14,295 bases of DNA, taken from the IMG/VR virus record IMGVR_UViG_3300045988_149043, positions 1 through 14,295 of that record, one strand, 5' to 3'. The notes beneath the pieces are model-generated. The model did not search any database. It saw only the letters and a list, made by a program, of their open reading frames with translations, and was not told the DNA's origin. Position numbers and translations under genes: made by a program. This document shows, piece after piece, positions 1-294 of the stretch; position 1 is the stretch's first letter; the number at the start of each line of letters is the position of its first letter. Origin of the DNA: a virus.

Positions 1-294
1 GCGTAGTAGACAGAATTCTGTAATATTCCGGTTCCCACCGTTACAGATTTCTGTACAGTTGCTTGTACATGTCCTGCGAACATATGTCCATGGTGCGCGC
101 ACACCTGCAAGCATGGCAGGGGAGTGTGTGCCGGTGTACATAGTAACAATTGCTAGTTATAAGAATGATACAAATGTGCATAGTATGGTCATATAGTCCA
201 TGTACCTGCAAGGTGCTTTGTGCTATACTATAATTGTACCATAAGGGTACATATCGCTATACATCACACCGACACAGAAAGGGAGAATTTGAAA
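1..294. repeat. Left inverted terminal repeat (ITR-L), 294 bp
   Basis: Compared base by base, 1-294 is the exact reverse complement of 14002-14295. Identity ends one base before the ATG at 295. The repeat contains short palindromes and repeats (CAGAATTCTG 11-20, CAGATTTCTG 44-53, GTGCGCGCAC 93-102), a promoter-like element and an RBS. Confidence 0.95.
201..234 (+). promoter_or_regulatory. Putative early promoter inside ITR-L (mirror copy at 14062-14095 on the - strand)
   Basis: Overlapping -10-like hexamers TATACT/TACTAT/TATAAT at 224-234 are preceded by TG at 221-222 (extended -10 TGcTATACT). The -35 is weak (TGTACC, 201-206). A TGTACC-N5-GGTACA palindrome at 236-252 could be an operator. 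The core TACTATAA is shared with the late promoter at 13401-13408. Confidence 0.45.

Follow-up and report, generated by a model that had tools for sequence, protein, structure and literature searches.

In phi29 and its close Bacillus relatives, DNA replication is protein-primed, early promoters lie near the genome ends, and the gp16 ATPase, connector and SSB (single-stranded DNA-binding protein) families are those of the genome described here. Their terminal repeats, however, measure only 6–8 bp (6 bp in phi29), so the promoters at the two ends are different sequences. The tectivirus PRD1 likewise replicates a linear genome by protein priming, with early genes that point inward from each end and perfect 110-bp repeats, but it belongs to an unrelated virion lineage, its first genes lie ~120–130 nt beyond the repeat, and the intervening sequences are unlike at the two ends. 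In the invertrons (adenovirus and the linear mitochondrial and yeast plasmids), terminal repeats combine protein-primed origins with inward transcription signals; these elements are eukaryotic or organellar and have no sequence relationship to the phages, and they serve as an analogy only. Among phages, a promoter inside the terminal repeat is already an established arrangement, as in Mycoplasma phage P1, Streptococcus phage Cp-1 and Actinomyces phage Av-1. Here, we describe the inverted terminal repeat of a 14,295-nt stretch of viral DNA (IMG/VR record IMGVR_UViG_3300045988_149043, positions 1–14,295; hereafter the window). We consider it likely that this repeat is a composite module, in which a predicted replication origin is joined to an inward-facing promoter, leader and ribosome-binding site that both gene arms would share.

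The window is the complete linear genome (14.3 kb) of a phi29-like gut podophage with protein-primed replication. Pfam matches, confirmed with PHROG, include a PF03175 polymerase, a phi29-type SSB, a gp16-type packaging ATPase (PF05894), a gp10-type connector (PF05352) and an M23 peptidase. Positions 1–294 (left repeat) and 14002–14295 (right repeat) are 100% complementary over 294 nt. The second-longest inverted repeat within the window spans 28 nt at 71%, which excludes chance as the source of the terminal repeat. On the left, the repeat ends immediately before an ATG (295–297); on the right, the ATG runs from 14002 to 14000, and its A is the innermost repeat base. The original prediction, made from the letters of the window, had proposed perfect 294-bp repeats that end at these two start codons, and both points hold, as do the positions it gave for the promoter-like element, the palindrome and the Shine–Dalgarno sequence treated below. 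The break at 294 is due to a run of A residues that differs by 1 nt between the arms (GAAAATG on the left, GAAATG on the right). When one gap is allowed, the match also takes in ATGA and reaches 298 in the left arm and 297 in the right arm, and the related assembly 109471 has an ungapped 300-bp repeat that includes this ATGA. The suggestion that 294 bp is long for a genome of this size did not survive comparison: the repeats make up 4% of the genome here, against 6% in P1 (350 bp in 11.7 kb). Moreover, Cp-1 has repeats of 236 bp (~352 bp in their extended form), those of Staphylococcus phage 44AHJD measure 210 bp, a distant relative of the window (L038) has 305 bp, and two close relatives have at least ~420 bp.

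Homologous repeats are present in ~10 related assemblies. The close relatives comprise MT835998 (GenBank; human feces, 87% identity) and ~10 IMG/VR contigs with polymerases that are 94–96% identical, and for most of them both ends were recovered by pairing loci from the same contigs. A search with a 24-nt repeat pattern returned no match in metagenome contigs and, in viral contigs, merely five relatives that were already known. An exact 14-nt scan of viral contigs (ACTATAATTGTACC) gave 120 matches that are almost entirely due to chance, as the pattern is too short, and was not used.

In 10 of the 10 genomes with sequence from both ends, left/right identity stops at the start codon, and across these genomes the right repeat is backed by at least five different genes. 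An edge at the start codon, regardless of which gene follows, is to be expected if the repeat is a shared expression module. The two copies within one genome are 95–100% alike (~95% between the arms of two relatives), while copies from different genomes are ~90% alike, a pattern of concerted evolution. In 088938 (L162/L008) and 029451_35 (L163/L009), a homolog of the first right-arm gene of the window (53 aa) lies inside the repeat at both ends, and on the left it stands upstream of the gene for an 82-aa protein that directly follows the repeat in the window. These gene-containing repeats measure at least ~420 bp and again end at a start codon. Even L038, with a polymerase only 39% identical to that of the window, has an unrelated but perfect 305-bp repeat whose end reads AGAGAGG...ATGAAA, i.e. 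a Shine–Dalgarno sequence followed by ATGAAA. In contig L002, positions 1–560 hold the repeat, the 53-aa gene, a second, identical 92-nt promoter–leader–Shine–Dalgarno module (from ~205 to the ATG) and then the 82-aa gene. Only the microhomology CTTAA is common to the sequences at this junction, and the contig may reflect a genuine rearrangement or be chimeric.

The sequence around the boundary recurs elsewhere in these genomes. A linker that joins Shine–Dalgarno sequence, spacer and start codon, GAGnnTTTGAAA(C)ATG, stands in front of several early genes of the right arm, both in the window and in relatives, and the sequence before the start codon at the end of the repeat, GGGAGAATTTGAAA(A)TG, is a variant of it. 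In 137119, the repeat is joined to the next gene via the internal form of the linker, GAAACATG. Between two linker copies (TTTGAAACATG) on the − strand of the window, positions 13786–13839 hold a stub open reading frame (MKEWFET...) where relatives have a full gene of ~45 aa (MKEWFITGADL...), which indicates that a deletion took place between the linker copies in the window. Recombination between linker copies would thus be a candidate for what sets the repeat boundary, and selection against events that end within a gene would reinforce it.

The inner part of the repeat contains an arrangement of signals expected of an expression cassette. The inward-facing element TGCTATACTATAAT lies at 221–234 of the + strand and is mirrored at 14062–14075 on the − strand in the right repeat. 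It can be read as an extended −10 element, TGCTATACT, in which TG-C-TATACT (221–229) supplies the TGn motif and is overlapped by TATAAT (229–234). Conservation across relatives was expressed as the mean pairwise identity of nine repeat copies. By this measure, the block at 221–237 that holds the −10 element is the most conserved part of the repeat (0.99) and the block with the Shine–Dalgarno sequence and spacer (276–294) reaches 0.92, while the region in which a −35 element is expected (205–220) is the least conserved (0.64). This pattern fits a predicted extended −10 promoter that would act independently of a −35 element. The Shine–Dalgarno sequence GGGAGA (281–286, +; mirror 14010–14015) is separated from the left ATG by 8 nt and from the right ATG by 7 nt, and lies ~55–60 nt from TGCTATACTATAAT.

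Two palindromes flank the −10 element. The first, TGTACCATAAGGGTACA (TGTACC-N5-GGTACA, 0 mismatches; 235–251, +; mirror 14045–14061), lies at approximately +1 and is partly conserved (0.75). The second, TGTACCTGCAAGGTGCT (201–217, +; mirror 14079–14095), is a degenerate copy with 2 mismatches that covers the −35 position. In the window, matches of the TGTACC-N5-GGTACA type occur solely in the repeats, with 0.45 expected by chance, and as a pair of dyads on either side of a −10 element they would suit a pair of operators. Equally open is the reading of the 235–251 palindrome as a putative hairpin at the 5′ end of the transcript, because 029451_35 carries a different hairpin-forming sequence, GAGGTGGAACCTC, at this site. 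The idea of an operator-like palindrome has therefore gained a second, degenerate copy, but not a protein to match: a family search of the small early proteins returned no significant DNA-binding domain (the best hit was HTH_45, E 0.13, in the 53-aa protein), and the gene for this protein is missing from relatives that retain the palindrome.

The outer part of the repeat differs in character. Its terminal bases, GCGTAGTAG (1–9; mirror 14287–14295), are the presumed site of protein-primed initiation. Three independent assemblies (the window, 109471 and 137119) begin with the same GCGTA, which places their ends at or near the true termini. These bases are followed by two copies of the palindrome ACAGAWTTCTGT (10–21 and 43–54; mirrors 14275–14286 and 14242–14253). 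In the window, ACAGAWTTCTGT is confined to the repeats (0.21 chance matches expected); it is conserved across relatives and occurs as three tandem copies in 029451_35. Its copies are plausible candidates for binding sites of an origin protein. Further inward lies a conserved 45-nt block (137–181; mirror 14115–14159) with a mean pairwise identity of 0.93, of which 150–181 is almost invariant. Inside this block, an outward-facing extended −10 element, TGTTACTAT, can be read directly from the − strand (148→140). Its hexamer is identical to that of the promoter of a small RNA elsewhere in the genome (see below), and the GenBank record of Cp-1 annotates an outward promoter at a similar position in its repeat. 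The unrelated repeat of L038 (1–305) contains tandem units of ~32 nt (ATGTCCGCGTACCAGGGACACAGGGTGCGAAG), which may be iterated protein-binding sites.

How far these observations carry the composite module depends on how it compares with other explanations. The most basic of these holds that the terminal repeat is an artefact of assembly or chimerism, or that the genome is circular or circularly permuted. Metagenome assemblers can indeed lay a single repeat node at both ends of a contig, and the perfect identity of the two arms is for that reason not independent evidence and may partly be a product of the assembler. Several related contigs (L005/L169, L008/L162, L009/L163, L018 and L037) have inverted end overlaps of exactly 55 or 77 nt, lengths that resemble k-mers, and the odd arrangement of L002 is possibly chimeric. 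Against this, protein-primed genomes require inverted rather than direct repeats and the matching polymerase is encoded, the 95%-identical arms of two relatives represent two physically distinct copies, and ~10 independent assemblies from different samples share the same ends, three of them beginning with GCGTA. The repeat itself is therefore not an artefact, and an origin of this kind is extremely improbable; the 55- and 77-nt overlaps are probably k-mer remnants of longer terminal repeats that were trimmed during assembly. Highly improbable, too, is the proposal that a structured RNA is the main product of the ~220 non-coding bases in each repeat, for instance a prohead RNA like the one that phi29 encodes next to its left end. 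In its favor, the repeats are the largest non-coding stretches of the genome, a gp16-type ATPase is present, the repeat holds the outward-facing TGTTACTAT, and an outward promoter is annotated in the repeat of Cp-1. Yet the repeat has no Rfam match, even at E<=10, it does not fold clearly better than shuffled sequences (z −2.1 on one strand, −1.5 on the other), and covariation is seen in 1 of 44 pairs predicted with alifold. A hairpin at ~95–135 that seemed to covary when judged by eye was not upheld. Moreover, a far better candidate for a prohead RNA, with full covariation and one copy per genome, lies at 13315–13401.

More serious is the possibility that the repeat is real and its inner 75 bp are not a promoter, the edge at the ATG being just a side effect of recombination or gene conversion between linkers; transcription would then start elsewhere, e.g. 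in the 137–181 block, or need a phage-encoded factor. The conservation of that block comes close to that of the −10 element, and linker repeats alone would be able to explain the position of the boundary. In addition, at a spacing of 16–18 bp we found no recognizable −35 hexamer, the best candidates agreeing at 3 of 6 positions in a poorly conserved region, and a simple promoter consensus scan of the window did not report the promoter at 221–234. The −35 and the scan also weigh against the composite module, as do several further points. The sigma-70-type reading is an assumption, backed solely by strong Shine–Dalgarno sequences and clear TTGACA-N17 promoters elsewhere in the genome. The termini lack a simple reiterated sequence such as the AAA that phi29 uses for sliding-back, so a few terminal bases could be missing from the assembled ends. 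The assignment of a terminal protein, which the predicted origin calls for, is a candidate based purely on position. In the wider group the arrangement is not universal, as the 272-bp repeat of L032 stops ~100 nt short of the first gene.

Extended −10 promoters work without a −35 element, and the poor −35 therefore lowers the promoter claim without removing it. Set against the non-promoter explanation are, in addition, the position of TGCTATACTATAAT, the most conserved element of the repeat, at a sensible distance from the Shine–Dalgarno sequence; the annotated or mapped promoters that P1, Cp-1 and Av-1 have at the same position; and the 92-nt module that L002 carries in duplicate before its second gene, as would be expected of a self-sufficient expression cassette. 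We regard the non-promoter explanation as unlikely, and favor the composite module. The original prediction of an origin and symmetrical early expression built into one duplicated module thus keeps its foundation, i.e. a protein-primed genome, conserved −10 and Shine–Dalgarno elements and an edge at the start codon, while an active promoter, the point at which transcription begins, a role as operators for the palindromes and expression at an 'early' stage are predictions from sequence features.

In the composite module as we picture it, the outer ~1–200 would act as the replication origin, with synthesis initiated at the terminus by a terminal protein together with the family-B polymerase, and with the ACAGAWTTCTGT palindromes and the conserved block probably bound by phage or host proteins. 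The inner ~75 bp would form the inward expression cassette, consisting of an extended −10 element recognized by a housekeeping sigma factor, with no usable −35, TGTACC...GGTRC sites on either side of it, a leader of ~55 nt and a strong Shine–Dalgarno sequence. With this cassette inside the repeat, both arms would begin with identical signals. The left cassette would drive expression from the 82-aa gene through the terminal-protein candidate, polymerase and SSB-like genes to that of the packaging ATPase, with a central terminator at its end. The right cassette would serve four small genes and reach as far as the terminator-like stem in the small RNA.

The early genes themselves would be compact cassettes behind the recurring linker. 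Recombination or copy-over between the two ends might then be tolerated only if it ends at the start of a gene, and the homology between linkers would favor such endings. We tentatively suggest that the inner edge of the repeat shifts in whole-gene steps by this route, which would make the repeat a device for gene shuffling and gene dosage as well. Possible outcomes include the placement of different accessory genes behind the shared promoter, the deletion of a gene and, occasionally, the drawing of a whole gene into the repeat. A gene captured in this way would be carried at both ends and expressed from each.

Apart from the repeats, the genome has a single sizeable non-coding gap, 13282–13433 on the − strand, which holds a promoter and an 87-nt structured RNA (13315–13431, −; promoter 13431→13403, RNA 13401→13315). 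The promoter is strong, with TTGACA-N17-TACTAT preceded by TG. The RNA folds into a three-way junction in which the closing stem is followed by a U-run. Among close relatives its sequence is ~98% conserved, in contrast to variable flanks. Covariance models derived from this RNA found one copy per genome in 35 of 54 sequences searched, and no match in the four cultured phages among the 54 (Cp-1, P1, Av-1 and 44AHJD). Compensatory changes are seen in 27 of 27 modeled pairs. Paired cells amount to 95.9%, compared to 58.8% in shuffles and ~40% in slid controls, in an alignment that was fitted to the model and thereby favors the structure. In addition, the internal loop of one arm is complementary to the hairpin loop of the other, and this loop–loop pairing covaries through at least nine sequence pairs (e.g. 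GCUAUA/UGUAGC, GGACA/UGUCC and AGGCA/UGCCU). The prohead RNA of phi29 has the same topology and the same loop–loop hallmark, and the GenBank record of Av-1 already proposes packaging RNAs outside the Bacillus phages. The small RNA has no Rfam match, prohead-RNA families included, and its fold makes it a candidate prohead RNA or, alternatively, a possible leader/attenuator or leader/terminator element of the late operon. The closing stem and U-run probably also terminate early transcription of the right arm. Just past the U-run, ATTCCGTCCG (~13303–13312, −) is complementary to the apical helix region of the RNA, CGGACGGAAT, and its core CCGTCCG is kept in 11 of 11 close relatives while neighboring bases vary.

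The two arms converge on a hairpin terminator (4799–4829; a 13-bp stem followed by a T-run), which sits between the stop codon of the ATPase gene (4797) and that of a tail gene (4834). The left arm, on the + strand, encodes in order the 82-aa protein, a 208-aa open reading frame, the family-B polymerase, the phi29-type SSB and the gp16-type packaging ATPase. The first of these genes (295–543, +) lies directly behind the repeat in all relatives with a recovered left end. It is a paralog of the fourth right-arm gene (60 aa; 13434–13616, −; BLASTP E 7e-7), with which it has the motif DFYRxC...VY in common, and one relative has an additional tandem copy on the left. The 208-aa product (530–1156, +) is a candidate terminal protein by virtue of its position, as its gene directly precedes that of the polymerase, an order also seen in Cp-1. 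Searches of Pfam, PHROG and the PDB (with phmmer) gave no match for it, and a BLASTP comparison to the terminal protein of Cp-1 was not significant. The protein-primed DNA polymerase (1023–3203, +; start codon uncertain) matches PF03175 above the gathering score (E 1e-11) and phrog_1907 (E 1e-55), and aligns to the polymerase of Cp-1 at E 2e-6.

The right arm, on the − strand, runs from 14002 to 4834 and begins with four small genes. The first of these (53 aa; 13841–14002, −) occupies a variable position, at which other relatives have other genes. The small early proteins have no significant family matches. The four genes are followed, on the same strand, by the small-RNA gene with its terminator-like stem and then by the lysis and structural genes: a holin, a scaffold-like protein, a likely capsid protein, the M23 peptidase, the connector and tail genes. 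Of the two inward-facing early operons that had been proposed, the inward orientation of the first genes stands, but the right arm is not confined to an early operon, as it runs on into the small RNA and the lysis and structural genes. Within the gene for the scaffold-like protein (114 aa), positions 12697–12858 consist of a 9-nt tandem repeat with ~13 in-register units that encode (A/P)-rich triplets (AAPAAPAAL...). Contig L002 breaks exactly at this repeat, which makes it an assembly hazard, and it is probably a region of variable length.

The window offers a clean and comparatively well-supported case of space saving in very small linear phages, with a single duplicated module that would combine the origin of replication with the signal from which both gene arms start. 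The relatives add that the boundary of the repeat falls on a start codon and may be able to shift by whole genes, which the tools and literature we used do not show for this group. For the annotation of gut viromes, this suggests that contigs of this family with inverted overlaps of 55 or 77 nt are probably truncated copies of genomes with repeats of at least 300 bp, and that the first gene behind each repeat should be treated as a variable accessory position. The current understanding of protein-primed phages is unchanged by these findings.

A promoter within the repeat is not new in itself, contrary to what the original prediction implied. The best parallel is found in Mycoplasma phage P1 (NC_002515, genus Delislevirus), a protein-primed podophage of 11,660 bp with convergent arms and a central terminator, as in the window. 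Its inverted repeats are perfect over 350 bp, with the first left/right mismatch at 351, and its GenBank record annotates a promoter in each repeat and a first coding sequence that starts at base 350, the last base of the repeat. The P1 repeat ends in TGTGGTATAATA, an extended −10 element. The repeat sequences of the two phages are unrelated, however; the right start codon of P1 lies 5 nt beyond the repeat, and P1 infects a mycoplasma and uses genetic code 4. In the window, a full leader and Shine–Dalgarno sequence up to the ATG are also inside the repeat, on both sides.

Streptococcus phage Cp-1 (NC_001825) resembles the window in having inward-facing early genes at both ends. Its repeat is perfect over 236 bp and continues with a few mismatches to ~352 bp. 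Each end carries two tandem TTGACA-N17-TATAAT promoters, and the mapped starts recorded in its GenBank entry (PE1/PE2 and PE4/PE5) fall inside the imperfect 352-bp repeat or adjacent to it, at its inner edge. In Cp-1, similarity decays at the transcription start and ribosome-binding site, so each side has its own leader and Shine–Dalgarno sequence. In addition, the late genes of Cp-1 are on the strand of the left early genes, and its polymerase is only ~23% identical to that of the window. Actinomyces phage Av-1 has an imperfect repeat of ~210 bp (94.8%) that ends at an annotated −35 element, with symmetric annotated promoters at the inner edge, of which only the −35 is within the repeat. The 210-bp repeat of Staphylococcus phage 44AHJD is perfect; in both Av-1 and 44AHJD, the first annotated genes lie 70–130 nt further in. 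What is specific to the lineage of the window is the sharing of the whole leader and ribosome-binding site between the two ends, together with a boundary that seems to move in whole-gene steps.

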